IMG/VR virus record: IMGVR_UViG_3300017911_001818
Span: 32,003 to 96,002 of that record
Direction: 5' to 3' (one strand)
DNA: 64,000 nucleotides
Source: a virus
Taxonomy: Duplodnaviria; Caudoviricetes
Made by a program: the position numbers and the translations under genes. Positions 6,359-33,318 of this stretch are shown here, piece after piece. Each line of letters opens with the position of its first letter. Positions within the stretch are counted from its first letter, which is position 1. The notes under the pieces were generated by a model that was not told the origin of the DNA, searched no databases, and saw only the letters and a program-made list of their open reading frames with translations.

Positions 6359-7123
6359 ATGAAGAATGCTATATTTCAATATTATCTTAATTTTAATGGA
6401 GTTGGTAAGCAAGGCGCTCATTATCCAACAGAAGGTAAACCTGAATGGGTTGAGCGTTCTGTGCAATATTTTAAAGAATACGCTAAAAAGCATGGCGCAG
6501 AATATTTTTTCTTTGAAGATCGTTATGTTAATGCAACGTCAAATTTTTTTGAAATTTTAAGGCTGTATAAAGATCCTATCTTCGATAAATTTGATAATGT
6601 ATTGTATCTAGATGTTGATGTCATGCCAAAAAATATGGATGCTAATATTTTTGATATTCATTTTGGAGATGTAGCTGGATGGCCAGAATGGCGTGCGCCT
6701 GAAATCGCTGTTTCGATAAACTGGAATGCAAATCATCAGATAGCTAGTAGGTTTGCTGACTTTGGTGCACCTGTTGTGCCTTCGAAATCAGCTCCTACTA
6801 ATCTTCGCATGATAAACTCTGGGGTTATGCTTTGGAAAAAGCGAGCTAGAATAAAAGCCAGAGAATCGTTTGACGATCATGAAAAATGGTTTCATCATAA
6901 AAATGCGCTACTTGATTCAAAATGGACTAGCGCAGGACATAGTTCCCACTGTCTTGATCAGCCATTCCTTAATGCCATGTTTAATAAAAATAATTTTAAA
7001 GTAACTGAGCTGGGTATGGAATGGAATAGATTCCCAACAAAAAAAGAAAGTTTTCCTTGTAACTTTGCACATTATGTTGGGGATTACAGATACAATATTC
7101 CAAAGATGTTTGAGGAATTATAA
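6359..7123 (+). CDS. GT8-like glycosyltransferase
   Basis: LYLDVDV, INSGVML, DQPFLN, EWN, HY. Confidence 0.78.
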   Translation: MKNAIFQYYLNFNGVGKQGAHYPTEGKPEWVERSVQYFKEYAKKHGAEYFFFEDRYVNATSNFFEILRLYKDPIFDKFDNVLYLDVDVMPKNMDANIFDIHFGDVAGWPEWRAPEIAVSINWNANHQIASRFADFGAPVVPSKSAPTNLRMINSGVMLWKKRARIKARESFDDHEKWFHHKNALLDSKWTSAGHSSHCLDQPFLNAMFNKNNFKVTELGMEWNRFPTKKESFPCNFAHYVGDYRYNIPKMFEEL

Positions 7124-7863
7124 TGAAAGTTGCAGTTTGCGTCTCGGGCTTGCCAAGAAGCAGTATCAGGGAGGATGTTAGACCTAATATTGAACGGCTC
7201 GAAGAAAATTTCCCTGATGCCGATTTTTATTTTAGCACATGGTTAAGTCAAAAAGAGTATATTAGTAAATATTTTCCTGATAAAACAGTAGCATTTTTTC
7301 CTGAGCCAAAAGTTGATTATCATCCTTTCGTTGATGCAGATATTGACTTTCATGAAGTTACCCCCAAGCTTGAAAAGACTATTAATCAAGCGAAGCAAAA
7401 CAAAGTATTTCGAGAAACTTCTTCTCATCAAACGAAACAAATTTTAGCTCATGCATGTGCAGTTGATTATATTACATCTGATTATGATATTATAATTAGA
7501 GCACGTTGGGATACATGGACAGCTAAAAACGCCAAGAAACATTTTAATAATTTTGCTAAAATAGCCGCAGCGATGAATTGTGCAGTAGGCTTTGGCACTT
7601 TAAAAGAACACTGGAGTATGTTTAATCAACCCTTTAATATTTCTGATAACGAGGGGTATCATTATAATTTTCTTTTTGATCAATTAATTATTCATCCAAA
7701 GAAAATATTTAATACTGATAATGTATGGAAGCTACATAAAGAAAAACTACTTCTCGCTGCAGAGTTTGGCTGGTGGCAAGTTCTTTCTAAAAATAATAAT
7801 CATATTTCTATATCCGGATTAGCCAACCCAGATAGAAGTGTATCTCCAGAGTTTTTAATTTAA
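7123..7863 (+). CDS. putative glycosyltransferase-like protein, paralog of 3446..4147
   Basis: MKVAVCVSG..R, YDIIIRARWD, EFGWWQVLS. Confidence 0.55.
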   Translation: MKVAVCVSGLPRSSIREDVRPNIERLEENFPDADFYFSTWLSQKEYISKYFPDKTVAFFPEPKVDYHPFVDADIDFHEVTPKLEKTINQAKQNKVFRETSSHQTKQILAHACAVDYITSDYDIIIRARWDTWTAKNAKKHFNNFAKIAAAMNCAVGFGTLKEHWSMFNQPFNISDNEGYHYNFLFDQLIIHPKKIFNTDNVWKLHKEKLLLAAEFGWWQVLSKNNNHISISGLANPDRSVSPEFLI

Positions 7864-8558
7864 TGAAGACTTGCATTTTTCAATATTGGATTGGTGAAGA
7901 ACCTCAGTGGGTCAAAATCAGCAAGAGAAAGTTTAAAGAATATGCTGATGCTGTTGGCGCAGATTATATCTTTTCAAATCAACTAAAATACTGTGATAAC
8001 TCTTACTTCGAAAATCTAAGAGTATTACATGATCCATTATTTTCTAAGTACGATAGAGTATTATATGTTGATGTTGATGTAATACCAGAAAATTTTAACA
8101 ATATTTTTGATGAGGAAATTAGAGATATTGGATTAATTCCAGAATACAGGCCAAAGGGTATGAATGCTGATCCATTTTTTGGATTGACAAAAGTCGAAAT
8201 TCAATATAAACTAGCTGCATCATATTTTAAAGTTCCTGTTCACACCCCGAAGACAGTAAAAGCTTCATATTTAATGTTTAACAGTGGTGTTATTCTTTGG
8301 TCAAAAGAAGGAATACAAAAGGCTGCTAAACATTTTATGAACTGGGAAAGATGGCATTATAAACTTGAAGGTAACATGTCTTTAGATCAGCCATATATAA
8401 ATGGTCAGGTTCAGAAACATTTAGATTATACAGAGCTAGAATTAAAATGGAACTGCTATCCTAAATTTAGATTTTATGAAGGTAAAGAGCCTAAAGAAAT
8501 GAACTTCGTTCATTACACTGGCGGTAAGAAAAAATACATAGAGGAATATTATGAGTGA
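7863..8558 (+). CDS. GT8-like glycosyltransferase, paralog of 6359..7123
   Basis: LYVDVDV, FNSGVIL, DQPYIN, KWN, HYTGGKK. Confidence 0.8.
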   Translation: MKTCIFQYWIGEEPQWVKISKRKFKEYADAVGADYIFSNQLKYCDNSYFENLRVLHDPLFSKYDRVLYVDVDVIPENFNNIFDEEIRDIGLIPEYRPKGMNADPFFGLTKVEIQYKLAASYFKVPVHTPKTVKASYLMFNSGVILWSKEGIQKAAKHFMNWERWHYKLEGNMSLDQPYINGQVQKHLDYTELELKWNCYPKFRFYEGKEPKEMNFVHYTGGKKKYIEEYYE

Positions 8559-11110: not shown

Positions 11111-11753
11111 AGCTTTCCTGACAGGCTGTGATGATAACACAGAATGGATGTTGAAGTGGTGGTTTACTGAATACTCAAAGTATAATACTACTCCAGTTAT
11201 CTTTGCTGACTTTGGTGTCAGTGAGGAGATTCGAGAATATGCTGAACAAAATTTCGCCAAGGTCATCACACTAACTGGACGAGAAGATAAAAACTGGTTC
11301 TTGAAACCAGAGGCTATGATTCGTGCATCAAAGTTCTCAAAGAAAACTTGTTGGATTGACACTGATTGTCAGGTTTTACGGAACATTTCAACGATTTTTA
11401 ACTACTGTCAGGAAAATAAGCTGGGAATGGTTGAAGACTTACCCTGGTCAAAACGCAGAGGAGAGACATGGCATAACTCTGGAATCGTTTTATTCGAGGG
11501 CACGCCAAAAATCTTAAGAGATTGGAGAAATCAGATTAATGAAAGTCCGACTGTTGGAGATCAAGAGGTTTTACACTTAATGTTAAGAGGCGATCCTCTG
11601 AAGAAGCGAATATATATTGAAGACTTGCCTAATATTTACAACTGGCTACGTATTCAGCTTCTAGATGGTCAGGACTCTTCAAAGAAAAAGATTATTCATT
11701 GGACAGGTTTTAAAGGTAAAGCGCAAATAAGAAAGATGATTGAAAATGCCTAG
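11100..11753 (+). CDS. nucleotide-diphospho-sugar transferase (GT-A)
   Basis: W..KP, WIDTD, HNSG, GDQE, HWTG..GK. Confidence 0.78.
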   Translation: MFDKAFLTGCDDNTEWMLKWWFTEYSKYNTTPVIFADFGVSEEIREYAEQNFAKVITLTGREDKNWFLKPEAMIRASKFSKKTCWIDTDCQVLRNISTIFNYCQENKLGMVEDLPWSKRRGETWHNSGIVLFEGTPKILRDWRNQINESPTVGDQEVLHLMLRGDPLKKRIYIEDLPNIYNWLRIQLLDGQDSSKKKIIHWTGFKGKAQIRKMIENA

Positions 11754-12354
11754 AGTTGCTCATGTTATTGGTAATGGTCATGCATCCAATCTTTACACTC
11801 CTCAAAAAGGAATGAAGATTTGTTGTAACTTACCTCCTTTTGAAATTCCGAATATTGCTCTATCTTGTATGGTAGATTTTAAGATGATGAAAGCTCTTTA
11901 TGAAGGATCATTAGAAAACCCATATACTTGGGTGTTAGGTATGCGTCCAAAGATGTATATGGAGAAATATAGCGACTTTAGATTAAAGCATATGGCACAA
12001 GTAAAAGAGTTTTATACTACTTTGCCTAAATATGCAGGTAATGGCGGGCAAGGTTATACTAATTTTAATTGTGGGCACTTTGCTTTACACTATACATGTA
12101 ATAAAATTCAGCCAGAGGAAGTGCATATCTGGGGGTTTGATTCATTAATGGACTTTGATATTCGTTCAAGAACAGATTTTTATCTTAACTCTGATAGAGG
12201 CGGAATGAATACACAACGACTGTCGCAGACATGGCGATCAATTACGCATGGCATTTTTAACGAGTTTAACAATATTCAGTTTATAGTCCATCATAAGCAC
12301 AGCAATATGAAAGTTGAGAGGCCAGATAACGTAGAGGTTATGGTGCATAAATGA
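11746..12354 (+). CDS. Maf/sialyltransferase-like (GT29/GT42-fold) putative ulosonic acid transferase
   Basis: HVIGNG.S near the N-terminus, then G..A and VHIWGFD, a pattern typical of CMP-sugar transferases. Start is taken at ATG 11746. Confidence 0.55.
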   Translation: MPRVAHVIGNGHASNLYTPQKGMKICCNLPPFEIPNIALSCMVDFKMMKALYEGSLENPYTWVLGMRPKMYMEKYSDFRLKHMAQVKEFYTTLPKYAGNGGQGYTNFNCGHFALHYTCNKIQPEEVHIWGFDSLMDFDIRSRTDFYLNSDRGGMNTQRLSQTWRSITHGIFNEFNNIQFIVHHKHSNMKVERPDNVEVMVHK

Positions 12355-13991
12355 AAATCTTAATTTTATATCCTAACATCCCAATGATGTTTACTCCAGC
12401 ATTGAGCGTTGGGATATTTAATACTATTTGTAAACAAGAGGGCGCTGAAGTTAGTGTGTTTGAAACAACATACTATTCAGAGCAGTTCTCCAACAGGCAT
12501 GTCAGTTTGACTAGCACTGGTGCAAATAATGGCGGTAATGTAGAGGACTACATGGATATTAAAGATCCGAAGGATATGATTCCGGATCTGAAAGAAAAAG
12601 TTGACACATTTAAACCTGACTTAATTTTAATGTCCCTCGCCGAAGATACGTATCATCAAGGTATTGAATTATTAGAAGCAATTAAAGACAGAAATATTCC
12701 GAATATTGTTGGGGGTGTTTTCGCTAGAGATGCAAAACAAGTATTACTGAAGCATGATGTTATTGATCAAATTTGTCATCATGAAGGTGAATATGTAGTT
12801 CGTGATGCCATTCGTGCATTTAAAAACAATGAGTCTTTTGAAAATATTAAAGGCACGACATACAGGTATGCGGATCATGCGCATACTAATGAAGAACAGC
12901 CACTCTGTAATATTTCTGAGTATGCTCCAGATTATGATCTTTTTGAAGATTTTCGCTGGGCCAGACCTATGGGCGGCAGAATCTTTAAACGTGTAGTCGC
13001 ACTCGAAACATATAGAGGTTGCCCATATAATTGTACTTATTGTAACTCGCCCTCTCAAAGAGCGTTTTCGAAAGAAAATAATCAAGGCAACTTCATGCGT
13101 AGAAAAACTGCAGATGTTGTCGAAAAAGAATTAGTTTCCATCTTGGAAAATCATAATCCGGAAATGATTATGATTATTGACGATTCTTTCTTGGCTAGAC
13201 CAAAGAAAGAGATCGAGTCTTTTTCAAACATGTGGTCGAAGTATAAAATTCCTTTTTGGATGAATACACGTGTCGAGAACTGCAGCCCTGAAGTTTTAGA
13301 TATGATGAAGCACGCTGGCTGTTATCGTATGTCATTTGGCCTTGAGTCTGGCAATGAACAATATCGTAGAGATATACTTTCCAGAAATGTTAAACAAGAG
13401 GTATATCTTGAACATTTTGAATATATTAATGAGTCTAATATTCCATATGCATTGAATATTATCATTGGTATGCCATACGAAACTCCAGAAATGATTGAAG
13501 ACTCTGCGAAGTTATCCCGTGAAGCAAGAGGATATGACGCTCTAACTATTTCTAAATTTATTCCATATCATGGCACAGGGCTAAGAACTATGGCAGTAAA
13601 TGCTGGATTCCTAGATCCCAACTTTATTTCTGGTGGCGGTGGACTTCTCGGAGACTATGCTTTGAATATGCCTGAACCATATGTATCTCCAAAACAGGTT
13701 GATGACTACATTAAAATTTTCTCGCTATTAGCTTACTACCCAGACAGTATGTGGGATGAGGTGAAGGCATCTTTGCATGATGAAGAATTATATAAGAAAC
13801 TTGTTGATGATTATAAATCTTCATATTATACTGAATTTCAACAAGGCGGAAAAGATAGAATTAAAAGGCTTGACAAAAAGATTAAAGAAAAGTATAATGA
13901 ACCTTCTGGTATTAAAGCATGGTCAAAAGGCTGTGCTAAACACGATGAAAGTTCTTCATTTAGATTTGAGATTATGGCAGCGGCATCATGA
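12351..13991 (+). CDS. cobalamin-binding (class B) radical SAM enzyme, putative methyltransferase
   Basis: N-terminal B12-binding region (KPDLI, VGGVFA, EGE), RGCPYNCTYC, IDD.F, GLESG, IIGMP.ET. Confidence 0.9.
   Translation: MKILILYPNIPMMFTPALSVGIFNTICKQEGAEVSVFETTYYSEQFSNRHVSLTSTGANNGGNVEDYMDIKDPKDMIPDLKEKVDTFKPDLILMSLAEDTYHQGIELLEAIKDRNIPNIVGGVFARDAKQVLLKHDVIDQICHHEGEYVVRDAIRAFKNNESFENIKGTTYRYADHAHTNEEQPLCNISEYAPDYDLFEDFRWARPMGGRIFKRVVALETYRGCPYNCTYCNSPSQRAFSKENNQGNFMRRKTADVVEKELVSILENHNPEMIMIIDDSFLARPKKEIESFSNMWSKYKIPFWMNTRVENCSPEVLDMMKHAGCYRMSFGLESGNEQYRRDILSRNVKQEVYLEHFEYINESNIPYALNIIIGMPYETPEMIEDSAKLSREARGYDALTISKFIPYHGTGLRTMAVNAGFLDPNFISGGGGLLGDYALNMPEPYVSPKQVDDYIKIFSLLAYYPDSMWDEVKASLHDEELYKKLVDDYKSSYYTEFQQGGKDRIKRLDKKIKEKYNEPSGIKAWSKGCAKHDESSSFRFEIMAAAS
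13870..13898 (+). promoter_or_regulatory. perfect sigma70-type promoter inside the radical SAM gene
   Basis: TTGACA (13870-75), 17 bp spacer, TATAAT (13893-98); about 90 bp upstream of the kdsB-like start. Confidence 0.7.
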
Positions 13992-14752
13992 CAACATATT
14001 TAATTCCTTGTAGATTAGAAAGCACTCGTTACCCAAATAAACCTTTGCTGGATATTTGTGGACTTCCAATGTTTGCTCATGTATATTTTCGCACTCTGAT
14101 GGCAGTGGAAGATAATGATAACGTTTTCGTTTGCACACATAATTATGAAATTATGGAAGAATGCGAACGTTTGAATATTGAGTATATCGAGACTGATAGG
14201 CTCCCTGTGAATGGCACTGAGCGAATCGCACAAGCAGCAGATAAACTAGGATTATCTGGATCAGACATCGTAGTGAATGTGCAGGGAGATGATCCTATGG
14301 TCGAACCTGAAGATTTAATCACACTCGCAAATTATCACAAGAATCGACCTGATGTGGACATCATGCTTCCGCATTTAAAAATGGACGAGCCGAGAACAGA
14401 TTATCTAACTGGCCATATTGTGACTAATTCTTACGACAATATCTTATATATTTCTAGGAATCCGATTCCGTCAAACTTTAGAAAAAAGATCCCGTACAAG
14501 AAGACTTTGAGTATTCAGTCATTTAGAGCAGATGCTTTGTATGAGTTTGCAGCAGAGCCTGAAACTGAACTTGAAAAAATTGAAGGCATCGAGCATCTTC
14601 GAGCGATAGACATGGGGCTATGTATCGAGACTTTTGAATTAGGAGAAGAATACACTCCTGTCGACGTTCCAGAACAATATGAAATTGTTCGTAAAAAAAT
14701 GGTTGACGACCCATTATTTTTAGAGTATAGTCATCTTGTTATTAAAGAGTAA
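13988..14752 (+). CDS. kdsB: CMP-Kdo synthetase-like cytidylyltransferase
   Basis: IPCRLESTRYPNKPL, GTERIA, VNVQGD.P, YISR.PIP, LE.IE.IE.LR, VD.PE. Confidence 0.85.
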   Translation: MTTYLIPCRLESTRYPNKPLLDICGLPMFAHVYFRTLMAVEDNDNVFVCTHNYEIMEECERLNIEYIETDRLPVNGTERIAQAADKLGLSGSDIVVNVQGDDPMVEPEDLITLANYHKNRPDVDIMLPHLKMDEPRTDYLTGHIVTNSYDNILYISRNPIPSNFRKKIPYKKTLSIQSFRADALYEFAAEPETELEKIEGIEHLRAIDMGLCIETFELGEEYTPVDVPEQYEIVRKKMVDDPLFLEYSHLVIKE

Positions 14753-16746: not shown

Positions 16747-16817
16747 TAAAAGTTTACACGATAGTTGAAAAAAATACAAAAAAGGGGGTTGACAGCGACT
16801 CCCTTTTTTATTATATT
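16747..16817 (+). promoter_or_regulatory. early promoter cassette 2
   Basis: 28-bp box at 16747-16774; TTGACA 16789-94, 17 bp, TATATT 16812-17; GGGGGTTG-ACAG-CGACTCCC-T6 hairpin. Confidence 0.9.
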
Positions 16818-17541: not shown

Positions 17542-17612
17542 TAAAAATTTACACGATAGTTGAAAAAAAATCGAATATAGGGCTTTACATTCCTGCAAAA
17601 AGTCCTATATTC
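17542..17612 (+). promoter_or_regulatory. early promoter cassette 3
   Basis: 28-bp box at 17542-17569; TTTACA 17584-89, 16 bp, TATATT 17606-11; 14-bp inverted repeat 17573-86/17599-612. Confidence 0.85.
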
Positions 17613-18829: not shown

Positions 18830-19345
18830 ATGCGATATATTTTTATTCTGTTTCTTTTTATCGGGTCTGCATCTGTATCTCAGGCGCAGACCTATCTTAA
18901 TTGTAATGAGATAACTGTTGAAGCACGTGATTATACACACGTGTCAAAGAATCTTCCTACTCGCAATAATAATCCAGGAAACATTCGAAGAACATCGGTG
19001 AAATACTTTGGAGAGACGAATGCTGATGCAACGTATGAATCTTTTTCTTCTCCAATCTGGGGATATGCCGCTATGTTTGACCTTCTGTATCGTCTGTATT
19101 CTGGACTCACTCTGAAGGAAGCTATCTACAAGTGGGCTCCGCCAACCGAGAATGATTCTGAGCGTTATGTGAGGTTTGTCTCTAGTGAGGTTGGAGTTGA
19201 TGCAGACGAGTATATCATTGATGTTGATAATCCTTCCATTATGACAGTGGCTAAATATATGTCGGTGCTCGAAGGGATGAAAGGATTTTCTGATTCCGAT
19301 ATTGAGCTTGGTTATATGCTTTGGGATACTTGTTATTATGGTTAA
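18830..19345 (+). CDS. lysozyme-fold (NNPGNIR family) protein with an N-terminal signal peptide; putative endolysin or virion muramidase
   Basis: RNNNPGNIR, F.SP..G..A, TL..AI.KWAPPTEND..Y; hydrophobic signal ending SQA; ACTAAATA late-like promoter at 18817-24. Confidence 0.7.
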   Translation: MRYIFILFLFIGSASVSQAQTYLNCNEITVEARDYTHVSKNLPTRNNNPGNIRRTSVKYFGETNADATYESFSSPIWGYAAMFDLLYRLYSGLTLKEAIYKWAPPTENDSERYVRFVSSEVGVDADEYIIDVDNPSIMTVAKYMSVLEGMKGFSDSDIELGYMLWDTCYYG

Positions 19346-20039
19346 AATTTATGTTGGCTGTGCGCCAAAAGGTTTAGACGCTGAAGCGCAGATGGTTCTC
19401 GACTACAGTATTAAAAAATTTACATCAATTGATTATGAAATTATCTGGCTGAAAGATTCTAAACATAAAGGCTCAAAGCTGTATGGCTGGGATATGAATT
19501 ATTGGGATACTCCATTCTGTGGTTTTAAATGGGCAGTTCCGGAGCTTTCAAAATTTAAAGGGGAATCTATCTATCTACAATATAATCATATCGTACTTGA
19601 AGATATTGCACAGTTGGTAGATCAAAAAATAGAAAAAGATGCAGTAATGATTACGCCGAAAACTAATCCATTTTCTGCAATTAAATTTAATAACAAAGCA
19701 ATAAAAGAATATTTGCCTTCGATTGAAGACATGAAGAATTCTTCAGCAGCTCATCAAATATGCACTAAATACTTTTTTGATAATGGAAACTTAATTTCTT
19801 ATTTTGATAGCGACTGGGAAATTGAAATTTTTGATCTTGGCGAAAAATCCGGACTGCCATATAATAATCTGAGGCAAGTATATCTTGATAAGTATACATA
19901 TCCTCGCCTTAGAAAAGTGGGTGTCGACCATTGGTTTAATACTGAATGTTCTAACACGAAATGTATAATTCCAGGAGTTTTCGATCAATATTATGAAGAA
20001 GCTCTAAACGAGGGATATTCGATTGAGAATTATACTTAA
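19338..20039 (+). CDS. GT-A glycosyltransferase-like protein with a degenerate DxD motif
   Basis: KIYVG...VL.YSI, W.TPF..FKWA.PE...F.G..IY; the expected D.D position reads LQYNH. Confidence 0.55.
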   Translation: MVKIYVGCAPKGLDAEAQMVLDYSIKKFTSIDYEIIWLKDSKHKGSKLYGWDMNYWDTPFCGFKWAVPELSKFKGESIYLQYNHIVLEDIAQLVDQKIEKDAVMITPKTNPFSAIKFNNKAIKEYLPSIEDMKNSSAAHQICTKYFFDNGNLISYFDSDWEIEIFDLGEKSGLPYNNLRQVYLDKYTYPRLRKVGVDHWFNTECSNTKCIIPGVFDQYYEEALNEGYSIENYT

Positions 20040-20048
20040 AGGTGTCAA

Positions 20049-20789
20049 ATGTCTTTAACTCGAACATTTTTACCAGCCAGTGGCGCTCTTTCTTTGGGCG
20101 CTGCTGCAGGATCAGGAAGAAGTATCACGGAAAGGTTTGGTGGTTCTACAGCGCATAGTATGTCTGAGTATTATGGTATTGGTGTAAATACAGCGAATGC
20201 AACGTTGCCAGCAAGCGGTCCTTTAAGGTTTAGCGATTTTTATAATCGAACAGAAAACATAACCACTAGCAGAACGACTCAGATTCCGGGTCCGGGTCAA
20301 CCATTCGTTCCAGCTTCTCCGGCAGAGCCAGCACAATTTGTTCCTGCTCAGTCAGGTTCCCCCAGCGTATTTCAACCAGGAAGTCCAGGTCAACCAAACA
20401 ATCCTTCTCAGCCGTCAGAGCCAGCACAACCCTCTGAGTTCGGCCAACCGTTTAGACCGGGACAACCATTTAATTTTGGGCAGCCGACTATTCCGGGAAG
20501 CTTTAATCCTTTCTTTGGTGTATTTCAACCAACAGTATTTGGACAATTTCCTAGTCCTGGTCAGCCAAGCTCAGGACAACCGTTTGTTGCGGGGCAACCG
20601 TTTGTTCCGGGGCAACCCTTTGAGTTTGGTCAACCATTTTTCCCATCAAATTTTCAACCAGGAGTTCCTAGTCAACCGGGAGGCCAGACTCAGCCATTCG
20701 AACCAGCAGTGCCAGAAAAGCCGGCACAACCCGGAACTATAAATCAAGTTACAGAATTTTTAACGAGAGTCGCTCCTGAACCTTCATAG
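20049..20789 (+). CDS. putative fibre-tip/adhesin-like virion protein with Pro-Gly-Gln-Phe repeat tract
   Basis: N-terminal LPASGALSL..SI..FGG...HSMSEYY...PASGPLRFSDFY is an attachment-type domain common in phage tip proteins; residues 79-231 are about 25% Pro. Confidence 0.7.
   Translation: MSLTRTFLPASGALSLGAAAGSGRSITERFGGSTAHSMSEYYGIGVNTANATLPASGPLRFSDFYNRTENITTSRTTQIPGPGQPFVPASPAEPAQFVPAQSGSPSVFQPGSPGQPNNPSQPSEPAQPSEFGQPFRPGQPFNFGQPTIPGSFNPFFGVFQPTVFGQFPSPGQPSSGQPFVAGQPFVPGQPFEFGQPFFPSNFQPGVPSQPGGQTQPFEPAVPEKPAQPGTINQVTEFLTRVAPEPS
20283..20741 (+). repeat. coding low-complexity repeat: (P/F)GQPFx and xxP triplets
   Basis: 10 GQP units; 39 Pro in 153 residues (manual count). Confidence 0.9.
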
Positions 20790-20798
20790 GATTTTATA

Positions 20799-21755
20799 AT
20801 GCTGCCATTACATAATTACAAAGATACTACTCTTGGTATCACGAATGAAAAAAGAATTGGTTCTGCAAACCAACTGACATATACTCCTAAAAAACTGACT
20901 AGATTAAATATTATTGAAAAGATTTTTCAGGAAAAATGTCATCTTCCAGTTCAGTTTGACCTTATGCCTTGTGAAGATTGGTATTACCCAAAGTATTTGA
21001 CGTATACGAATGTAAACAAGTATATGTTCTTGACGACTAATTCATTTGAGTTTAATACTAGATTCTTCATGCATCAGCTTACAGCAATTGACTGGAAGTT
21101 TATGGACACAAACATTGAACAAATTTTTGAAGAAGGAGAAATTTCCGACAAGTATAAGCTCGTTTCATATGAGGGCGATGAACTTGATACTGTATTTTTC
21201 TTGCCAGGAACTAACATCGATTATCTAATCGACTATACTAAGATCGATGAGATTATGCAGAGTAATTCAAATGTTCTGCTGAAGCCACATCCTTTGACTA
21301 GCAAAAAGCATCTTGCAATTTTAGCTAATATGTATGGATGGGAAAATATTATTGAAAAAGAAATTTCAGGTCATGACATTCTTAAGAAAACTAAAAATGT
21401 TTTTTATACAGATAATTCTGAGATTGGAATGAAAGCTTATCAAATGGGTAAGGACCCTAAACATTTTAATATTTTAAATCTAAGTCAGCCAATGATCTAT
21501 CATTCTTTTTATCATATTCTTAGAGCTAATCAATCAGATGTTAAGTCACTAATCTCTGCATTCTTCTCTACTCCTAAATTCGGGATGTTTGATCTAAACG
21601 ATCCGATCGACACTCTTAATAATAATGTTGCATCGTTTCTTGCAGACCTAGAGCATTTTAGACAGCGACTAAAACCAGTCTCTACAACATTTGATAGAAC
21701 CGCATTTAATAATTTTTTAGATATGAGAAGAAAAGAAAAGAATGCTTCCGTTTAA
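20799..21755 (+). CDS. GT-B transferase resembling KpsS/KpsC capsule (Kdo) transferases
   Basis: LLKPHP followed by V...NSEIGMKA..MGK, i.e. an HP motif plus an S..G.EA..GK-like pattern. Confidence 0.55.
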   Translation: MLPLHNYKDTTLGITNEKRIGSANQLTYTPKKLTRLNIIEKIFQEKCHLPVQFDLMPCEDWYYPKYLTYTNVNKYMFLTTNSFEFNTRFFMHQLTAIDWKFMDTNIEQIFEEGEISDKYKLVSYEGDELDTVFFLPGTNIDYLIDYTKIDEIMQSNSNVLLKPHPLTSKKHLAILANMYGWENIIEKEISGHDILKKTKNVFYTDNSEIGMKAYQMGKDPKHFNILNLSQPMIYHSFYHILRANQSDVKSLISAFFSTPKFGMFDLNDPIDTLNNNVASFLADLEHFRQRLKPVSTTFDRTAFNNFLDMRRKEKNASV

Positions 21756-22296
21756 AGTATTTAAAAATTTTATAGATGATGATTTTGTAAGTAAGTATCT
21801 TTCTAATGATGGATATGTAGAGGCATCAGTTACAGACAAAACAGGAACTAATTCCGAGAAAAATGATAAAACTCGGAGAAGTCGAGTAAGATTTTATAAT
21901 AATGATCAGATACCACTTTTTGATAAATTGGTTGATTCCTATTCAAAATATTTTGATGAAGGCGAGATAGATTATTTTGATTATCAGCTAACAAGGTATG
22001 ACGCTGAGGATTCTGGCTTCTTTCATATGCATGATGATACTGTAAGATCAAACACACCTCATATTCGAAGAATATCCTGTAGTATTTTTATGTCTGATCC
22101 TGAGCATTATGATGGCGGAGATTTTATTTTTAGAGACTATGATCTACAATCTGTTCGAGGCTGGAACGATAAGTACAGTTGCGTGATGTTTCCCTCAACA
22201 GGATTGTATCATGCTGTCTTGCCAGTAACTAGAGGGACACGTTACTCTTTAGTATGTTGGGGTATGGGAAAAAATCCAGATTATAAGGCTGATTGA
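21742..22296 (+). CDS. prolyl 4-hydroxylase-like 2OG-Fe(II) oxygenase
   Basis: Q.TRY, HDD, RRIS, Y.GG.F, FPS..YH.V.PVT.G.RYSLV.W. Confidence 0.88.
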   Translation: MLPFKVFKNFIDDDFVSKYLSNDGYVEASVTDKTGTNSEKNDKTRRSRVRFYNNDQIPLFDKLVDSYSKYFDEGEIDYFDYQLTRYDAEDSGFFHMHDDTVRSNTPHIRRISCSIFMSDPEHYDGGDFIFRDYDLQSVRGWNDKYSCVMFPSTGLYHAVLPVTRGTRYSLVCWGMGKNPDYKAD

Positions 22297-22856
22297 TGTT
22301 TAAAAAAATTGATCCTAACTTTCCAGTTCATAGCTTTAAAAACTTTTTTAGTATGACTGACGATCAAAGAGATAAGGCGGTAATGACTTGCCTTCGACAT
22401 CACCATAAGCACATTAAGAGGTTAAGTAAACTGTCAGTAGGGTATAACTATGTTGTACCGAAAGCTGGAGTTCTCGAAGAAATACCTAAAAAAGTAAATG
22501 AGGCTCTTGATGCTGCGTTCGGCGGCAAGCTTACTAATGATAGCATTTATGCATATTCTTCTAACAGTAAAACAAGTTTTGATCTTTGGCACGATCACGC
22601 ACATGTGCACACTACCGTGACAACAGTTTATTATCTACAGCTACCAAATCATAATGAGAGTGGTATTCAGTTTGAGATAGATGATAATATTTTGGATTAT
22701 AAGCCAGAACAAGACGAGCTCGTTATATTTCCAGGATGGCTAAATCATAGGCCATACAAATCTGGCGTTAGTGAAGAGTGGAGAGTTTCTTTAAATATGG
22801 ATCGAATTTATGACATGCCTGATAGAATTTTTACTAGAATGGGAAAAGAACTATGA
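22296..22856 (+). CDS. 2OG-Fe(II) oxygenase (HxH type)
   Basis: WHDH, VYYLQ.P, LVIFPGWLNH, R.SL. Confidence 0.82.
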   Translation: MFKKIDPNFPVHSFKNFFSMTDDQRDKAVMTCLRHHHKHIKRLSKLSVGYNYVVPKAGVLEEIPKKVNEALDAAFGGKLTNDSIYAYSSNSKTSFDLWHDHAHVHTTVTTVYYLQLPNHNESGIQFEIDDNILDYKPEQDELVIFPGWLNHRPYKSGVSEEWRVSLNMDRIYDMPDRIFTRMGKEL

Positions 22857-23437
22857 GTAATATCCAATGTGATTCTTTATTCCCCCAAAAGGTTTGGCGT
22901 ACTGACTTGGATTTAAATTGTTCTAGGCTAAAGCAGTATGTTTTAGGTCTAGAAAAGAAAGATCAAACAGGTAATAACAGAAGTAATGTAAATGGCTGGC
23001 AGAGCAGATCTTTAGATCCTAGACAAGTCGATAATGAAGATGTAAGTAAAATGCTAGAAGCTGTAATCCATAAAGTAAACACTTGTGGAAGCACTAATAA
23101 TATGCCTGAATTAAAAATTAGTAACTATTGGTTTAATATTAATAGAAAGGGTAGTATGAATGCATCTCATACACACCCTGGATCAGTTTTAAGCGGAGCA
23201 TTCTACATCAACAGTAACGAGAAAGACGGAGAAATTATTTTTGAAAGAGGAGATAATGCCCAATGTTACTTACCTGATGGTTTAAACAACGGTAATTTTT
23301 ATACCTCTGTAACATATGTATATCCTCCTAAAATAAATCGCCTATATATCTTTGGCTCTTGGCTTTCACATTGGGTAAAACCAAATACAACTAACTCTGA
23401 TAGAATAAGTTTGAGTTTTAATACACATGTTGCATGA
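22853..23437 (+). CDS. TIGR02466-like 2OG-Fe(II) oxygenase
   Basis: SN.NGWQS, WFNIN, HTHP.S.LSG.FY, IF.SWL.H.V, RISLSFN. Confidence 0.88.
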   Translation: MSNIQCDSLFPQKVWRTDLDLNCSRLKQYVLGLEKKDQTGNNRSNVNGWQSRSLDPRQVDNEDVSKMLEAVIHKVNTCGSTNNMPELKISNYWFNINRKGSMNASHTHPGSVLSGAFYINSNEKDGEIIFERGDNAQCYLPDGLNNGNFYTSVTYVYPPKINRLYIFGSWLSHWVKPNTTNSDRISLSFNTHVA

Positions 23438-24080
23438 TGTCTTACAAAGAATTAAGGAATTTCCAGAAGAACCTTTTATCAGTAGGGTTTGTACACCAGA
23501 GCAAGCTGAAAAACTTTTTAATTGGAATGATGTATCAGAATTAATTAGAACGAATGAAAATAAATTTGAATTAATTAATCAAGATAATAAAAAAATTTCT
23601 GTTAAAGAAATAAATCAGCCATGGCATGGAACTGTACAAGATAAATCTACAATCTATGAAAACATTTTAGATGGACTTGGGTTTGTAATTATTAATCAAA
23701 GTTATTACAACAAAAGTATGAATAGACTCTCTGCAGATATAGAGAGCTCGCTAAAAAAAGCTACCGATATTCATGTATATGGAGCATATGATGGCTCTGG
23801 GAAATCTTTTACAGCCCACAGCGATCCAACATCAAATATTATTGTTCAGTTAGATGGCACATCTCTTTGGAGGATTTACGCAGAAAAACTTGATCAAGTT
23901 CCTAGAGATAAAACTCATTTGCTTACAGAAGTAATTAATCAAAAGCTTTATCCAGGAATGGTTGCGTATATTCCAAATAGAACTTACCATAAGTGCGAGC
24001 CTTTATCTAAAAGATTATCGCTTAGTTTTGCGATTCATTCTAACATACATCCACACACAAGAGAAGAGTATATTTTATGA
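23427..24080 (+). CDS. JmjC/cupin-4 protein hydroxylase-like
   Basis: SF.AHSD, IVQL.G...W, PG...YIP...YH, RLSLS. Confidence 0.8.
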   Translation: MLHDVLQRIKEFPEEPFISRVCTPEQAEKLFNWNDVSELIRTNENKFELINQDNKKISVKEINQPWHGTVQDKSTIYENILDGLGFVIINQSYYNKSMNRLSADIESSLKKATDIHVYGAYDGSGKSFTAHSDPTSNIIVQLDGTSLWRIYAEKLDQVPRDKTHLLTEVINQKLYPGMVAYIPNRTYHKCEPLSKRLSLSFAIHSNIHPHTREEYIL

Positions 24081-25249
24081 CTAAATTTTACAACGATGAC
24101 ATAAAGCTTGATTTTTCTGATGTGTTGATTGTTCCGGGAAGAAATTCAACAGAGCTTTTGGCAGAGAAAAAATTTTATAATAAAAATATGCTATCTAGGA
24201 ATGATGTAAATTTAATTAATAGTTTTCGCTCAGATCCTTCTATACGATTAGTCGACAGTGAAGTTGATAATGACACTACAATTAACATTGTTGCATTACC
24301 AATTATTGCTTCAAATATGGATGGAGTTGGTACAGTAGAAATGCACGATCAGCTACGTAAAAATAAGATGATGACTTCTTTGGTTAAATCTACTACTGAT
24401 GAAGAATTAGATGCGATACAAGAACCAGAATTAGCATTTTTAACCATTGGCATTAATGAATCTGATTTAGATAGAGTTGAACAACATAAACATAAATTTA
24501 AAAATATTTGTATTGATACTCCAAACGGATATTTGGCAAATATTCCGCATTTCGTAAGTAGAGTAAGAGCGATTTGTGGAGAAAAAACTTTTATTATGGT
24601 AGGTAACATTGTAACTGCAGAGCATGCTTTAAATTTATACATGGCAGGAGCTGATTGTGTTAAAGTTGGCATCGGTTCAGGTAGTGTATGCACAACCAGA
24701 ATTAAAACTGGAGTTGGATACCCACAGCTATCCGCTATCTTAGAAGTGTCTAAACAAGCACATCAGATTAATCTTACCATGAGACGTAAGTTATTTGTTT
24801 GTTCTGATGGCGGTTGTACAGACCCAGGAGATATCGCTAAAGCTTTCGTAGCTGGTGCTGATTTTGTTATGCTCGGTGGCATGTTAGCTGGACATGATGA
24901 AGGTGGAGGTGAAATCGTTAAAAAGTATGTAGAGAGCGATGAGCGGATGATGCATCCACAAGGCTCTAGATTCGTTCCAGTTATAGATGAAAAGAAATAT
25001 GTTCAATTTTATGGTATGAGTTCTAAAACTGCCAATGATAAACATAATGGTGGTCTAAAAGGATATCGTGCCGCAGAGGGTAAAGAAGTTTTAATCCCAT
25101 ATAAAGGACCAGTTCAGGATACTATTGATGACATCTTAGGAGGACTTCGATCAGCTTGCACGTATATTAATTCTCCAAATTTGAGAAAAATGTCAGTTTT
25201 TGGAAAATTTGTTAAAGTTAATAATCAGGTAAATAATGTTTTTAAATGA
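24077..25249 (+). CDS. guaC: GMP reductase
   Basis: LDFSDVL, NMDGVGT, CID..NGY, KVGIGSGSVCTTR, DGGC..PGD, FYGMSS, YRAAEGK, LGGLRSACTY. Confidence 0.95.
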   Translation: MTKFYNDDIKLDFSDVLIVPGRNSTELLAEKKFYNKNMLSRNDVNLINSFRSDPSIRLVDSEVDNDTTINIVALPIIASNMDGVGTVEMHDQLRKNKMMTSLVKSTTDEELDAIQEPELAFLTIGINESDLDRVEQHKHKFKNICIDTPNGYLANIPHFVSRVRAICGEKTFIMVGNIVTAEHALNLYMAGADCVKVGIGSGSVCTTRIKTGVGYPQLSAILEVSKQAHQINLTMRRKLFVCSDGGCTDPGDIAKAFVAGADFVMLGGMLAGHDEGGGEIVKKYVESDERMMHPQGSRFVPVIDEKKYVQFYGMSSKTANDKHNGGLKGYRAAEGKEVLIPYKGPVQDTIDDILGGLRSACTYINSPNLRKMSVFGKFVKVNNQVNNVFK

Positions 25250-25914
25250 ACACATTAGTTACAACTTATTATGAAGATCCTGATTATCTTGAAAAATATA
25301 TAGAATACAATTTTCAAGAGGATGTGTTCAGTCACTTAATTATCGTTGATGATGCATCCTCTAAATTTCCCGCAAAAAAAGTCTTGACAAAGTTTAAAAA
25401 TGAGAATATAAGTTTATATGAGATTAAAGAAGATATCGGATTTAATTCTCATGCGGCTAGGAATCTTGCCGCAACTCAATGTAAAACTGAATGGGCTACG
25501 TTTTTAGATGTTGATCATGTATTGACTTCTGAAACTTTTGACGATATAATAAGGTTTGTTGAACTTGAGGAAAATGAATGGCTTTGGTTTGGTGACAATC
25601 AGTTCATGATTCCTAGTAAATATTTCCTCGCTGCTGGTGGTTATGATGAAAGGTTAAATGGATATCGCTGGGGAACATTTTTAATGCAAGATCGCCTTGA
25701 TAAATTGTTCTCTAGAGAAATGTTAAACCCATGGAATAGCACTTTGCTTACTAGAACGTTAAAAGGATTACCTGGAATAACTCGACAATCTAGAGAACAA
25801 ATGCGAAAGAACAAAGCTAAAGAAGCTGAGATTAAACTTAACTCCTCTGCCAATCCTTTGGACTGGCATAAACATAAAATGTTAACTTTTGAATGGAATA
25901 AAATATGTCTCTGA
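25246..25914 (+). CDS. glycosyltransferase family 2/7-like
   Basis: IIVDDAS, ARNL, FLDVD, GGYDE. Confidence 0.8.
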   Translation: MNTLVTTYYEDPDYLEKYIEYNFQEDVFSHLIIVDDASSKFPAKKVLTKFKNENISLYEIKEDIGFNSHAARNLAATQCKTEWATFLDVDHVLTSETFDDIIRFVELEENEWLWFGDNQFMIPSKYFLAAGGYDERLNGYRWGTFLMQDRLDKLFSREMLNPWNSTLLTRTLKGLPGITRQSREQMRKNKAKEAEIKLNSSANPLDWHKHKMLTFEWNKICL

Positions 25915-26096
25915 ACAAACGTACCGTAGGTAAAAAGCAAAACAAGCAGTTTGCAGCTAGTAAGCGTCTAGATTCTCTCGCTGCTTATGATGAAGAGTAT
26001 GCACACTCTCATGACATTAAAGATATCGTAAGCGGTCTAGATGGATATTCTGAATATCTCTCTGATCGAAATGGATCTGGTAGCGACTGGTATTAA
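25905..26096 (+). CDS. hypothetical protein (63 aa)
   Basis: Overlaps both neighbours, with TAATG coupling downstream. Confidence 0.55.
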   Translation: MSLNKRTVGKKQNKQFAASKRLDSLAAYDEEYAHSHDIKDIVSGLDGYSEYLSDRNGSGSDWY

Positions 26097-26965
26097 TGGA
26101 TCATTTTAATTTAATTAAAATTATTGAAATTAATCCAACAGAGCTCTGTAATTTGCAGTGCTCTTTCTGCCCAAGAGCGCATGGATATCCTAATCAAAAC
26201 TTGCATATGTCGATTGATACCGCAAAAGAGATTATAAAGCAAATAGAAAATTGCAATTTTAAGGGAGATGTAGTATTCGCAGGAAGAGGAGAACCTACTT
26301 TAACTAAAAATTTTGATAAAATTGTACAGCTGTTTCTTGAATGTGCAAATATTAAACAAGTCCGTATCACAACGAATGGCAAGAGATTACATTTACTTGA
26401 GAAATTTTTAGAACCATATGGGAATAAGTTTAGAGTAAAATATGATGTTTATACTACAGACGAAAAACAGCAAAGATTAGCCTTAATAAAATATAAAAAT
26501 TATAAGAACGTGTCTGTTGACATTAAAACAGATTTCGGATTAAACTATAATGAATACCCTACTGGTAAAACTTCTGAAAAAAATCCCAATGTCAAATCTA
26601 AATATGGAACAGGCAATATTGAGGGTATGACTAATCGTGCTGGGTTTCTCGGAGAAAGCTTCTACGATTTTACTGACAAAAGCTGTAGAAAATTAACTCA
26701 TAATATGTATATTAACTGGAATGGTGATTATAATCTTTGTTGTGATGATTGGACTCCCTTAGTTTTAGGTAACATATATGAAGAGAGTATATCAGATTTT
26801 GCAAATCATAATGAGGCCATAGCTCATTACAGAAAAAAACTGGTCTGCGAAAACAGTCGAGAGGGATTACCTGCTTGCCAAACTTGTAATAGAAATGCTC
26901 CTCTGAATGCAGAGGTCAGAGTAGATGTTGAAAATTTAATAAAACTGGATGAGTTGATTCCATGA
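26096..26965 (+). CDS. radical SAM protein with SPASM/twitch domain
   Basis: CNLQCSFC, GRGEPTL, TTNG, LCCDDW, C..C. Confidence 0.9.
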   Translation: MDHFNLIKIIEINPTELCNLQCSFCPRAHGYPNQNLHMSIDTAKEIIKQIENCNFKGDVVFAGRGEPTLTKNFDKIVQLFLECANIKQVRITTNGKRLHLLEKFLEPYGNKFRVKYDVYTTDEKQQRLALIKYKNYKNVSVDIKTDFGLNYNEYPTGKTSEKNPNVKSKYGTGNIEGMTNRAGFLGESFYDFTDKSCRKLTHNMYINWNGDYNLCCDDWTPLVLGNIYEESISDFANHNEAIAHYRKKLVCENSREGLPACQTCNRNAPLNAEVRVDVENLIKLDELIP

Positions 26966-27722: not shown

Positions 27723-28628
27723 ATGTCACTTTCGAATCTCAAACGCTCTCGTGGTTCATCTATTGATAAGCTGGTTTCTGCGGCTGCAAAGCTGGATGAA
27801 AATGCTTCTTCAAATAATAACGGTCCGGATGAACGTATTTGGAAACCAACGGTAGATAAAGCAGGGAATGGCTATGCTGTCATTCGTTTTCTGCCAGCTC
27901 CTGAAGGTGAAGAGTTGCCATGGGTGCGTTACTGGGACCACGGTTTTAAAGGTGAAACCACTGGTATGTGGTACATTGAGAAATCGTTGACTTCTATCGG
28001 TCAAAAGGATCCTGTCAGTGAGGTAAACTCACGCCTCTGGAACTCTGGCGTTGACGCAGATAAAGAAACTGCTCGTCGTCAGAAGCGTCGGTTGCACTAT
28101 GTATCGAATATTTATGTAGTGTCCGATCCGGAGAACCCTCAGAACGAGGGCAAGGTATTCTTGTATGTTTACGGCAAGAAGATCTTTGATAAACTGATGG
28201 ACTCTATGCAGCCACAGTTCCAAGATGAAGACCCTGTTAATCCTTTTGACCTTTGGGAAGGTGCGGACTTTAAACTCAAGATTCGTCAAGTTGAAGGCTA
28301 CCGCAACTATGATCGAGCCGAGTTTGCTAAACCTGCCGCTCTAGCGGATGACGAGCAACTTGAAGAGGTTTATGCAAAAGCATATCCTCTAAATGAGTTT
28401 ACTGATCCTGCTAACTATAAGTCTTATGAAGAGCTCAAAGCTCGCCTTGATGCGGTTCTGGGTGTTGGGGGCGACTTTACCCCTCAGCAGCAAGAAGACC
28501 TGTCAGTGACTGCTGAGAGCGCTCCAATGAAGACTGTAGAACCTTCCGAACCATCTAGTGTAAGTAGCGATGATGACGAGGATGATGACACTATGTCATA
28601 TTTCTCTAAACTAGCTGCTGAAGACTAG
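27723..28628 (+). CDS. gp32: single-stranded DNA-binding protein gp32
   Basis: D.R.WKP..DKAGNGYAVIRFLPAP, WYIE.SL, KRRL.Y, GKKIFDK, NPFD.W.GA.F.LK, acidic tail ending YFSKLA. Confidence 0.97.
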   Translation: MSLSNLKRSRGSSIDKLVSAAAKLDENASSNNNGPDERIWKPTVDKAGNGYAVIRFLPAPEGEELPWVRYWDHGFKGETTGMWYIEKSLTSIGQKDPVSEVNSRLWNSGVDADKETARRQKRRLHYVSNIYVVSDPENPQNEGKVFLYVYGKKIFDKLMDSMQPQFQDEDPVNPFDLWEGADFKLKIRQVEGYRNYDRAEFAKPAALADDEQLEEVYAKAYPLNEFTDPANYKSYEELKARLDAVLGVGGDFTPQQQEDLSVTAESAPMKTVEPSEPSSVSSDDDEDDDTMSYFSKLAAED

Positions 28629-28636
28629 ATGATAAG

Positions 28637-33287: not shown

Positions 33288-33318
33288 TATAAATACTTTA
33301 AAGATACTCATATTTATA
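33288..33318. promoter_or_regulatory. divergent, crossing T4 late promoters
   Basis: TATAAATA on + at 33288-95 and on - at 33311-18, at the strand switch. Confidence 0.88.

Follow-up and report, generated by a model that had tools for sequence, protein, structure and literature searches.

The question raised by the locus described here is whether a bacteriophage can encode, in one tightly packed run of genes, both a proline-rich protein and the enzymes that decorate it chemically. The locus occupies positions 19338-24080 of a stretch of 64,000 nucleotides, hereafter the window, which corresponds to bases 32003-96002 of the 96-kb IMG/VR virus record IMGVR_UViG_3300017911_001818 (CheckV completeness estimate, 54%). 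Judging from gene content and wedge-protein comparison, the record represents an uncultured marine T4-like myovirus. Seven plus-strand open reading frames (ORFs), spaced by gaps of 9 nt or overlaps of 4-14 nt, code for a glycosyltransferase family 8 (GT8)-like protein, a Pro-rich protein, an enzyme of the KpsC/WbbB fold, a prolyl 4-hydroxylase (P4H)-like oxygenase, two PF13759 oxygenases and a JmjC-type oxygenase (Table 1). The initial annotation had regarded this run as a Pro-rich fibre-tip protein accompanied by enzymes that hydroxylate and then glycosylate it. The packed run itself, with its Pro-rich protein and enzymes, was confirmed by ORF coordinates, composition and Pfam. The notion of a substrate with its own tailoring enzymes holds in part, as it is backed by the pairing of the KpsC-like enzyme and by the linkage of the P4H-like family but not by the PF13759 pair and the JmjC gene. 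With roughly even confidence, the locus is interpreted as a mosaic of three separable modules within one long early-type gene run. The Pro-rich protein is probably chemically decorated, because relatives of the enzymes in other phages adjoin Thr-rich or collagen-like proteins.

The candidate substrate is a protein of unusual composition. Its residues 79-235 contain 24.8% Pro, in line with the tract of about 25% reported initially, together with 14.6% Gln, 13.4% Phe and 12.7% Gly, and its richest stretch of 60 residues (28% Pro) leads all other frames of the 96-kb record by a wide margin; Thr makes up 7% of the whole protein. The family comprises at least 13 clusters (the window protein and 12 others at 41-71% identity), whose members consist, in this order, of a conserved N-terminal module (N-module), a tract of 90-160 residues that is rich in Pro, Gln, Gly and Phe and varies between members, and a C-terminal peptide that does not vary. 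Compared with the related locus L052, the tract is 63% identical, the N-module 92% and the flanking enzymes 97-99%, with indels of six- or seven-residue units. Across L051-L053 the enzymes are 87-99% identical as against 69-73% for the Pro-rich protein; on these comparisons, the tract is fast-evolving relative to the neighbouring enzymes. It also contains an 18-bp tandem repeat at 20577-20622. A pattern search with the C-terminal peptide TEFLTRVAPEP gave no match in IMG/VR and, in metagenomes, only the syntenic L051-L053. The Pro-rich protein gave no tblastn match among cultured phages and no match to PHROG or Pfam fibre families, and locus scans with this single protein, or with the KpsC-like enzyme, returned no relatives. 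The N-module starts many phage proteins (49 IMG/VR loci) with Gly-rich or beta-rich bodies, some of them with weak tail-fibre PHROG matches; a profile search of solved structures with the module found no relative. AlphaFold models the Pro-rich protein mostly as coil (predicted local distance difference test, pLDDT, 55.8), with strands only at residues 72-80 and 231-239; a model of this quality is weak evidence. These strands (20262-20288 and 20739-20765; pLDDT about 65-70) coincide with the invariant Thr-rich segment and the C-terminal peptide, and pairing between the two would turn the Pro tract into a single long loop. A collagen-like nature of the protein was considered and rejected: no G-X-Y run of at least 10 triplets occurs in any window frame, and the 96-kb record has no collagen-like gene and, among its open frames of 100 aa or more, no G-X-Y run of at least 5 triplets. 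A 134-aa ORF in another frame inside the gene (20338-20742) is probably a by-product of the repeat composition.

The next gene, which starts 9 nt after the Pro-rich gene on the same strand (20789 to 20799), codes for a putative transferase of cytidine monophosphate (CMP)-activated ulosonic acids. The 318-aa protein has no match in Pfam or NCBIfam, and PF05159 (Capsule_synth) matches nothing in the record at E <= 10, while the same model matches control genomes; an Atlas lead places PF05159 on 14% of one neighbouring cluster. The family numbers 201 relatives in a 50%-identity library. Among 81 members, G137, N139, K162, H164 and P165 are invariant, and S190/G191 and E208 are invariant or nearly so. 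With the family profile, the best solved relative is KpsC (E 0.014), aligned on the K-x-H-P motif (K-V-H-P in KpsC). Moreover, the AlphaFold model has a pLDDT of 93.6, and its full-length Foldseek matches are KpsC, WbbB and KrkA only (E 2e-4, probability 1.0). These are beta-transferases of 3-deoxy-manno-octulosonate (Kdo); in the VIA comparison with them, Z is 10-10.9 over 222-232 residues at a root-mean-square deviation of about 4 A, covering model residues 2-287, whereas other GT-B enzymes align with the C-terminal half only. The HP motif of the beta-Kdo transferases contacts the CMP phosphate, and KpsC and KpsS use lipid acceptors (PMC10148158).

The link between this enzyme and the Pro-rich protein comes from gene neighbourhoods in other phages. 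By tblastn, KpsC-like homologues were found in Caulobacter and Vibrio phages. In the Caulobacter podophage BL199, the Thr/Ser/Tyr-rich gp042 closely follows the tail-fibre gene and lies directly 5' of the enzyme; in the T4-like Caulobacter phage Cr30, the Thr/Tyr-rich gp254, likewise the immediate 5' partner of the enzyme, lies between fibre-like genes and a neck gene; and in the Vibrio phage KVP40, KVP40.0254, two genes 5' of the enzyme, consists of the N-module of the window protein (hidden Markov model E 3e-14) followed by TSR-type Ser/Thr repeats. A scan with alignment A2 yielded 80 IMG/VR loci; grouped at 90% identity they form 35 lineages, and at 70% they form 18. In 13 of these 18, a protein whose Thr+Ser content is 45% or more ends no more than 700 bp 5' of the KpsC-like gene, and in a fourteenth (L070) a Thr+Ser-rich protein lies 1.2 kb 5' of it. 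The Thr-rich partners are often 300-1260 aa long, with 30-42% Thr and repeats punctuated by TSR or TSK, and in three marine lineages tail-fibre-like genes precede the KpsC-like gene. Unlike these partners, the window protein is not Thr/Ser-rich; its sole Thr/Ser-rich part is residues 68-77, of which T68, E69, T72, T73, S74 and T77 are invariant in the family (alignment A1) and which resemble the TSR repeats of the Thr-rich partners, including those of KVP40, BL199 and Cr30. Judged by this comparison, the window pair is a lineage-specific variant: a Pro-rich body has taken the place of the Thr-rich one, and only the TTS(R)xT segment has been left.

Beyond the window, in lineages that share 41-58% identity with it, the GT8-like protein, the Pro-rich protein and the KpsC-like enzyme are recorded on same-sized contigs (52132, 10675, 6535, 6439, 5645, 4815 and 4811 bp); with co-location taken from the size match, this is consistent with a trio that travels together. 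On these grounds, the KpsC-like enzyme likely acts on the Pro-rich protein. Since most of the KpsC-like/Thr-rich modules have no hydroxylase nearby, hydroxyproline is not needed as an acceptor. The glycan acceptor may be Thr or Ser instead, and residues 68-77 are an alternative O-glycosylation candidate as good as hydroxyproline.

Some further genes accompany the KpsC-like family elsewhere. In 15 of the 18 lineages, the KpsC-like gene overlaps at its 3' end with a gene for a protein of about 240 aa (alignment A7; e.g. L061:4563-5297). This protein has no Pfam or PDB relative and is not found in the 96-kb record, where the P4H-like gene occupies its position. A relationship between the A7 protein and the GT8-like gene was tried and rejected (hhalign probability 0.1). 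Three lineages with Thr-rich modules (L061, L065/L076 and L070) carry a distant JmjC gene (22-25% identity) beside a SecB-like chaperone (PF02556, E 2e-20; L061:6746-7896, L065:3526-4661, L070:5791-7590 on the minus strand and L076:5308-6455), with a weak 2-oxoglutarate (2OG)-oxygenase-like gene and a second Thr-rich gene nearby. Two lineages with Thr-rich modules possess a GT29-like sialyltransferase (PF00777, E 1.7e-9) and a gene that is GT8-like by eye without a Pfam match, as in L079 (minus-strand genes at 5625-6251, 6729-7646 and 7646-8290), and one of the two also has a homologue of the window radical SAM/SPASM enzyme at 26096-26965. The GT29-like sialyltransferases point to CMP-ulosonic-acid chemistry in these modules.

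A possible sugar donor is suggested by the window itself. The initial annotation had named a KdsB-like gene as a possible source of CMP-Kdo, and the gene is indeed present at 13988-14752, with a PF02348 match and with 3-deoxy-manno-octulosonate cytidylyltransferase as all of its top five NCBIfam models (best E 5.7e-57; with one of the models the score is 188 bits, below the cut-off of 193). Given this gene and the fold of the KpsC-like enzyme, the donor may be Kdo, although the chemistry may differ from that of KpsC. The KdsB-like gene ends a 14.7-kb glycan island and lies 6 kb 5' of the trio. The island precedes the seven-gene run and contains radical SAM/SPASM, B12-radical SAM, UDP-glucose-dehydrogenase-like, HAD-nucleotidyltransferase fusion, GT8- and GT25-like and methyltransferase genes. 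Directly 5' of the KdsB-like gene, at 11740-13991, a radical SAM enzyme of the B12-binding kind, closest to the models for HpnJ, BchE and PhpK-type methyltransferases, is preceded by a 204-aa protein without a family match; this region may be a modified-ulosonic-acid branch.

The gene kept directly 5' of the Pro-rich gene had been called GT-A-like, and its product is a putative distant GT8 relative. One of five family members, 35% identical to the window copy, matches PF01501 (E 5.9e-5) and reads D-A-D in the DxD column; the window protein has no Pfam match and reads Q-Y-N, with S-Y-N or D-F-N in the others. A profile comparison with another GT8-like protein of the window gave nothing.

The gene that follows the trio codes for an oxygenase for which the initial label, prolyl-4-hydroxylase-like, proved accurate at the level of family: it scores above the PF13640 cut-off, and its H97-x-D99...H157 iron triad and R167 are conserved in a 36%-identical relative. 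Its closest solved relative is the PKHD-type hydroxylase PiuC (E 8e-10), and NCBIfam models of the YbiX type match. The neighbourhoods of its relatives are informative. Among the best 80 related IMG/VR loci (L221-L300; 30 lineages at 70% identity), 40 loci in 15 lineages contain a G-X-Y run of at least 20 and up to 131 triplets, typically (Gly-Pro-Thr)n, with Pro at 42% of X and Thr at 56% of Y positions. In 37 of the 40, the collagen-like gene and the oxygenase share a strand, with the former 5' of the latter at a median gap of 1074 bp. Such runs occur in none of the 80 KpsC-like loci, none of the 80 JmjC loci and 2 of the 49 N-module loci. Additionally, at five further loci the P4H-like gene stands beside Gly-rich proteins that have either the N-module itself or a diverged version. 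Because P4H-like relatives are tied to collagen-like genes in this way (40/80 against 0/160), prolyl hydroxylation of the Pro tract by the window enzyme is plausible. The linkage may represent an undescribed collagen prolyl-hydroxylase system of phages; no paper linking phage P4H-like genes with collagen-like fibre genes was found in the open-access literature.

The last three genes are different in this respect. Two further 2OG-Fe(II) oxygenases and a JmjC protein had been annotated here, and all three match Pfam above cut-off, although the protein of 22293-22856 matches PF13759 in its C-terminal part only and falls below the TIGR02466 cut-off. The JmjC motif H131-x-D133...H188 is invariant in alignment A9. 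The closest JmjC relatives are cyanomyovirus genes, and the order PF13759 then JmjC is kept in Syn9 (gp48-gp49) and S-RIM44 at 31-37% identity. In the complete genomes of these two phages, searches that match KVP40 and the window record found no N-module and no KpsC-like family. Among the best 80 JmjC loci, 60 have a PF13759 partner and 13 a relative of the 22293-22856 protein; P4H-like relatives, Pro-rich ORFs and N-module proteins are absent from all 80, and a single locus has a KpsC-like module. From this distribution, the PF13759 and JmjC genes are a generic cyanophage-type cluster, and action of these enzymes on the Pro-rich protein is unlikely. The initial proposal that the oxygenases belong to the repeat protein was framed so that their independent occurrence would speak against it, and such occurrence is what was found for these three genes. 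The broader proposal, that this locus supplies a substrate for phage 2OG-oxygenase clusters in general, falls with it, as the generic cluster occurs without any such repeat protein. A search of the open-access literature on substrates of cyanophage oxygenases yielded no relevant paper, and the same was true of phage Thr-rich proteins.

The transcriptional setting bears on the role of the Pro-rich protein. Sigma-70-like promoters at 16789 and 17584 head the gene run, and the first strong terminator-like site lies at 28634. The overlapping run extends past 24080 through GMP-reductase-like, GT2 and radical SAM/SPASM genes to about 27527. The T4-type late-promoter-like motif TATAAATA occurs six times, all in the structural block at 33288-55526 (33288-33318, 41337, 44619, 55357 and 55519) and in intergenic gaps just 5' of structural genes, with none in the first 33 kb; the total equals the chance expectation, and it is the placement alone that is suggestive and looks non-random.

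These observations can be assembled into a mechanism, in which the substrate assignments and any modification are what we infer from gene identities, folds, motifs and neighbourhoods. Module 1 (19338-21755) would comprise the degenerate GT8-like protein, the Pro-rich protein and the KpsC/WbbB-fold enzyme; the last would bind a CMP-activated ulosonic acid through K-x-H-P, possibly Kdo supplied by the phage KdsB-like enzyme or by the host, and transfer it to its partner, with Thr/Ser of the TTS(R)xT segment as the likeliest acceptor. In module 2 (21742-22296), the P4H/PKHD-type oxygenase would hydroxylate prolines of the tract. Module 3 (22293-24080), the PF13759 pair and JmjC, would serve another substrate and be present by juxtaposition. 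A fibre role would fit the fibre-like bodies of N-module relatives and the position of the partners after fibre genes in BL199, Cr30 and the three marine lineages. Several points weigh against this account. The substrate links rest on guilt by association. In retaining beta-Kdo transferases, the Asp of an invariant QXXXD motif is the covalent nucleophile (PMC10148158); the KpsC-like family lacks this motif and has no conserved Q or D, and carries F-L-P-G-[ST]-N (with G137 and N139 invariant) at the equivalent strand end, an equivalence judged by hand from secondary structure. Together with the PF05159 non-match, this makes the donor, the mechanism and even catalysis uncertain. In fold and K-x-H-P motif, the initially proposed KpsS/KpsC-like HP-motif transferase is thus upheld; the nucleophile motif is what it lacks. 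Moreover, the P4H-like and KpsC-like families are found together in none of the 80 other loci of either family, the Pro tract is not G-X-Y, and a brief literature search found no stated substrate for PiuC or YbiX. The independence of JmjC is not strict either, as distant JmjC genes are interleaved in three Thr-rich modules. Finally, the Pro-rich gene sits in an early-type unit apart from the late-promoter structural block, which is atypical for a virion fibre protein.

The early-type promoters and the absence of late ones from the run agree with plain juxtaposition in a hyperplastic early-gene block, where the Pro-rich protein would be an unmodified, disordered early protein for host take-over or scaffolding; this is unlikely, if still a serious contender. 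In the same reading, the KpsC-like enzyme and the glycan island would serve envelope glycolipids and the oxygenases would act on host proteins, nucleic acids or metabolites. GMP-reductase-like, GT2 and radical SAM genes do share the run, KpsC and KpsS acceptors are lipids (PMC10148158), the nearest solved relatives of the P4H-like enzyme came without a stated substrate from that brief search, and the modelled Pro-rich protein is coil. Yet the KpsC-like gene stands beside a low-complexity protein across myoviruses and podoviruses of unrelated hosts and also in Pro-rich lineages 41-58% identical to the window, which would be difficult to account for if the two had no direct functional connection, and the linkage of P4H-like and collagen-like genes speaks against chance as well. 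A stronger form of the modification idea, in which the phage makes its own hydroxyproline-rich glycoprotein (HRGP) through PKHD-type hydroxylation of tract prolines and addition of Kdo or a modified ulosonic acid, activated by the phage KdsB-like enzyme, by a KpsC-fold enzyme with Asp changed to Asn, is improbable. More doubtful again is the complete cassette, with four oxygenases and the transferase acting in sequence, hydroxyprolines glycosylated and the resulting HRGP placed at the receptor-binding fibre tip. The genes are co-oriented and overlapping, their order is the same in L051-L053, collagen-like proteins are associated with the P4H-like family, three Thr-rich/KpsC-like modules also contain JmjC and another oxygenase-like gene, and a KdsB-like gene is in the genome. 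However, L051-L053 are close relatives and their shared order says little; the PF13759-JmjC pair occurs without repeat protein, N-module or KpsC-like gene in Syn9, S-RIM44 and the 60 JmjC loci; the KpsC-like enzyme is mostly found with Thr-rich partners and no hydroxylase; and the early-promoter context speaks against a fibre tip. Least probable is that the KpsC-fold protein is no enzyme and instead binds nucleotides as a chaperone or assembly factor of low-complexity fibre proteins, with the GT8-like protein as a pseudo-enzyme. The missing QXXXD, the Asn found by hand-judged equivalence in place of the Asp nucleophile, the degenerate DxD of the window GT8-like copy and the SecB-like chaperones of some modules would suit it, whereas the (near-)invariance of K-x-H-P, S190/G191 and E208 in 81 diverse sequences suggests that ligand binding and chemistry are retained, and GT29-like sialyltransferases and KdsB-like genes co-occur.

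Table 1. Features of the locus and its surroundings (window coordinates unless a locus is named)
Feature	Position	Strand	Basis or remark
KdsB-like cytidylyltransferase, candidate CMP-Kdo supplier	13988..14752	+	PF02348 E 1.4e-30
Sigma-70-like early promoter candidate, TTTACA-16-TATATT	17584..17611	+	last strong one 5' of gene run
Divergent GT8-like (GT-A) protein, 233 aa, degenerate DxD	19338..20039	+	homologue match
Pro/Gln/Gly/Phe-rich protein, 246 aa, candidate substrate	20049..20789	+	ORF, composition, family alignment
N-terminal module, residues 1-76, ...ERFGG..H.MSEYY...SGPL.FSDF	20049..20276	+	alignment A3
Thr/Ser segment T-E-x-I-T-T-S-(R)-x-T, residues 68-77	20250..20279	+	alignment A1
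Pro-rich tract, residues 79-235, hypervariable	20283..20753	+	GQPF-type unit indels, conserved core
Invariant C-terminal peptide TEFLTRVAPEP	20751..20783	+	13/13 family members
KpsC/WbbB-fold 'HP-motif' enzyme, phrog_26179, 318 aa, putative CMP-ulosonic-acid transferase	20799..21755	+	profile, fold
P4H/PKHD-type 2OG-Fe(II) oxygenase, 184 aa	21742..22296	+	PF13640 50.7 bits (cut-off 27)
2OG-FeII_Oxy_5-type oxygenase (weak), 187 aa	22293..22856	+	PF13759 32.7 bits (cut-off 27)
2OG-FeII_Oxy_5 oxygenase, 194 aa	22853..23437	+	PF13759 75.8 bits; TIGR02466 94.2 bits (cut-off 62.5)
JmjC-type (cupin) 2OG oxygenase, 217 aa	23427..24080	+	PF08007 (JmjC_2) 44.3 bits (cut-off 22)
Radical SAM/SPASM enzyme, possible accessory tailoring enzyme	26096..26965	+	PF04055 + PF13186
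Example collagen-like/P4H-like loci	L241:1576-3165, L291:727-2364, L285:4359-8285		

The wider surroundings are those of a T4-like genome. A gp32-type single-stranded-DNA-binding protein is encoded at 27723-28628, with tape-measure-like, baseplate hub and wedge, and fibre-like genes downstream. The closest cultured relatives of the gp6-like wedge protein, at 32-37% identity, are those of Phage C48C1, Methylophilales phage Melnitz and pelagimyophages, which points to a marine host. A megablast of 19000-25300 against cultured phages gave no match. The radical SAM/SPASM enzyme at 26096-26965 belongs to the extended run, and in one other lineage 11 loci have a homologue of it some 2 kb away from the KpsC-like gene. 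The GMP-reductase-like gene at 24077-25249 (NF003470, E 5.7e-104, below cut-off) overlaps both the JmjC and the GT2 genes by 4 nt. On the other side, the gene at 18830-19345 shares 8 nt with the beginning of the GT8-like gene. Its 171-aa product has a signal-peptide-like N-terminus and matches the lysozyme/transglycosylase parts of proteins from endolysin, tape-measure and injection-protein families (phrog_873, E 7e-26).

If the interpretation as modules is true, phages tailor fibrous, fast-evolving proteins with two families, a KpsC-fold CMP-sugar transferase and a minimal prolyl-hydroxylase-like enzyme. Both families would be newly tied to protein substrates, and annotations that now read 'hypothetical' or 'auxiliary metabolic' would change. 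Small substrates suited to mass spectrometry would be available, namely the 246-aa protein here and collagen-like proteins elsewhere. If the HRGP reading were true, protein 'Kdo-sylation' would be seen for the first time, plant and algal HRGPs would gain their first counterpart in a prokaryotic virus, and the (Gly-Pro-Thr)n collagen-like fibres of many other phages would be hydroxylated by members of the same P4H-like family. Glycans and hydroxylation on virion appendages could, as a conjecture, affect host range, stability and recognition. For the abundant PF13759/JmjC clusters of marine myoviruses, this locus offers no explanation.

Among known systems, the beta-Kdo transferases KpsC/KpsS (GT107), WbbB (GT99) and KrkA share with the phage enzyme the two-domain GT-B-derived architecture over its full length, K-x-H-P and a CMP-Kdo synthetase-like gene in the genome. 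The phage family differs in having G-x-N for QXXXD, no PF05159 match and about 10-12% identity. The beta-Kdo transferases adjoin capsule or O-antigen genes, whereas the phage enzyme adjoins a low-complexity protein; therefore a protein, and not a glycolipid or glycan, is its likely acceptor.

For the modification of phage proteins, Freeman et al. 2023 reportedly showed by mass spectrometry that mycobacteriophage virion proteins are O-glycosylated by phage glycosyltransferases. In that system as in this one, the proposal is that transferases encoded by the phage modify Ser/Thr-rich stretches of its structural proteins. The enzyme families, hosts and targets (C-termini of capsid and tail tube) are different, and the present case is known from genes alone. 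As regards hydroxylation, the prolyl 4-hydroxylase of chlorovirus PBCV-1 acts on virus-encoded Pro-rich repeats, and in mimivirus collagen, hydroxylysine is glycosylated after hydroxylation. In these systems, as in the window, the virus supplies both a P4H-superfamily 2OG oxygenase and a Pro-rich or collagen-like protein. They belong to giant eukaryotic viruses, however, while here the host is bacterial, the enzyme is a minimal 184-aa PKHD/YbiX-like protein known from its gene, and the window tract is neither G-X-Y nor PAPK. The proposed logic of a Pro-rich extended tract, a P4H and subsequent O-glycosylation is also that of plant and algal HRGPs, of which the Chlamydomonas mastigoneme is an example (PMC11015965). 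The window tract lacks their Ser-Pro(n) motifs and the glycosyltransferase families are unrelated, and hydroxyproline glycosylation in the window phage is a conjecture.

The remaining comparisons are with other phages. The cyanophage clusters (Syn9 gp45-gp54 and S-RIM44) have PF13759 followed by JmjC/cupin in the same order as the window; they adjoin tryptophan-halogenase-like genes, and their genomes are without N-module and KpsC-like gene. The phage Thr-rich/KpsC-like module resembles the window in the enzyme directly 3' of a low-complexity protein, in the N-module of KVP40.0254 and in the TTS(R)xT segment. It differs in that the window partner is Pro/Gln/Gly/Phe-rich and ends in an invariant C-terminal peptide, and in that the window has a P4H-like gene instead of the A7 partner and a degenerate GT8-like gene on the 5' side.

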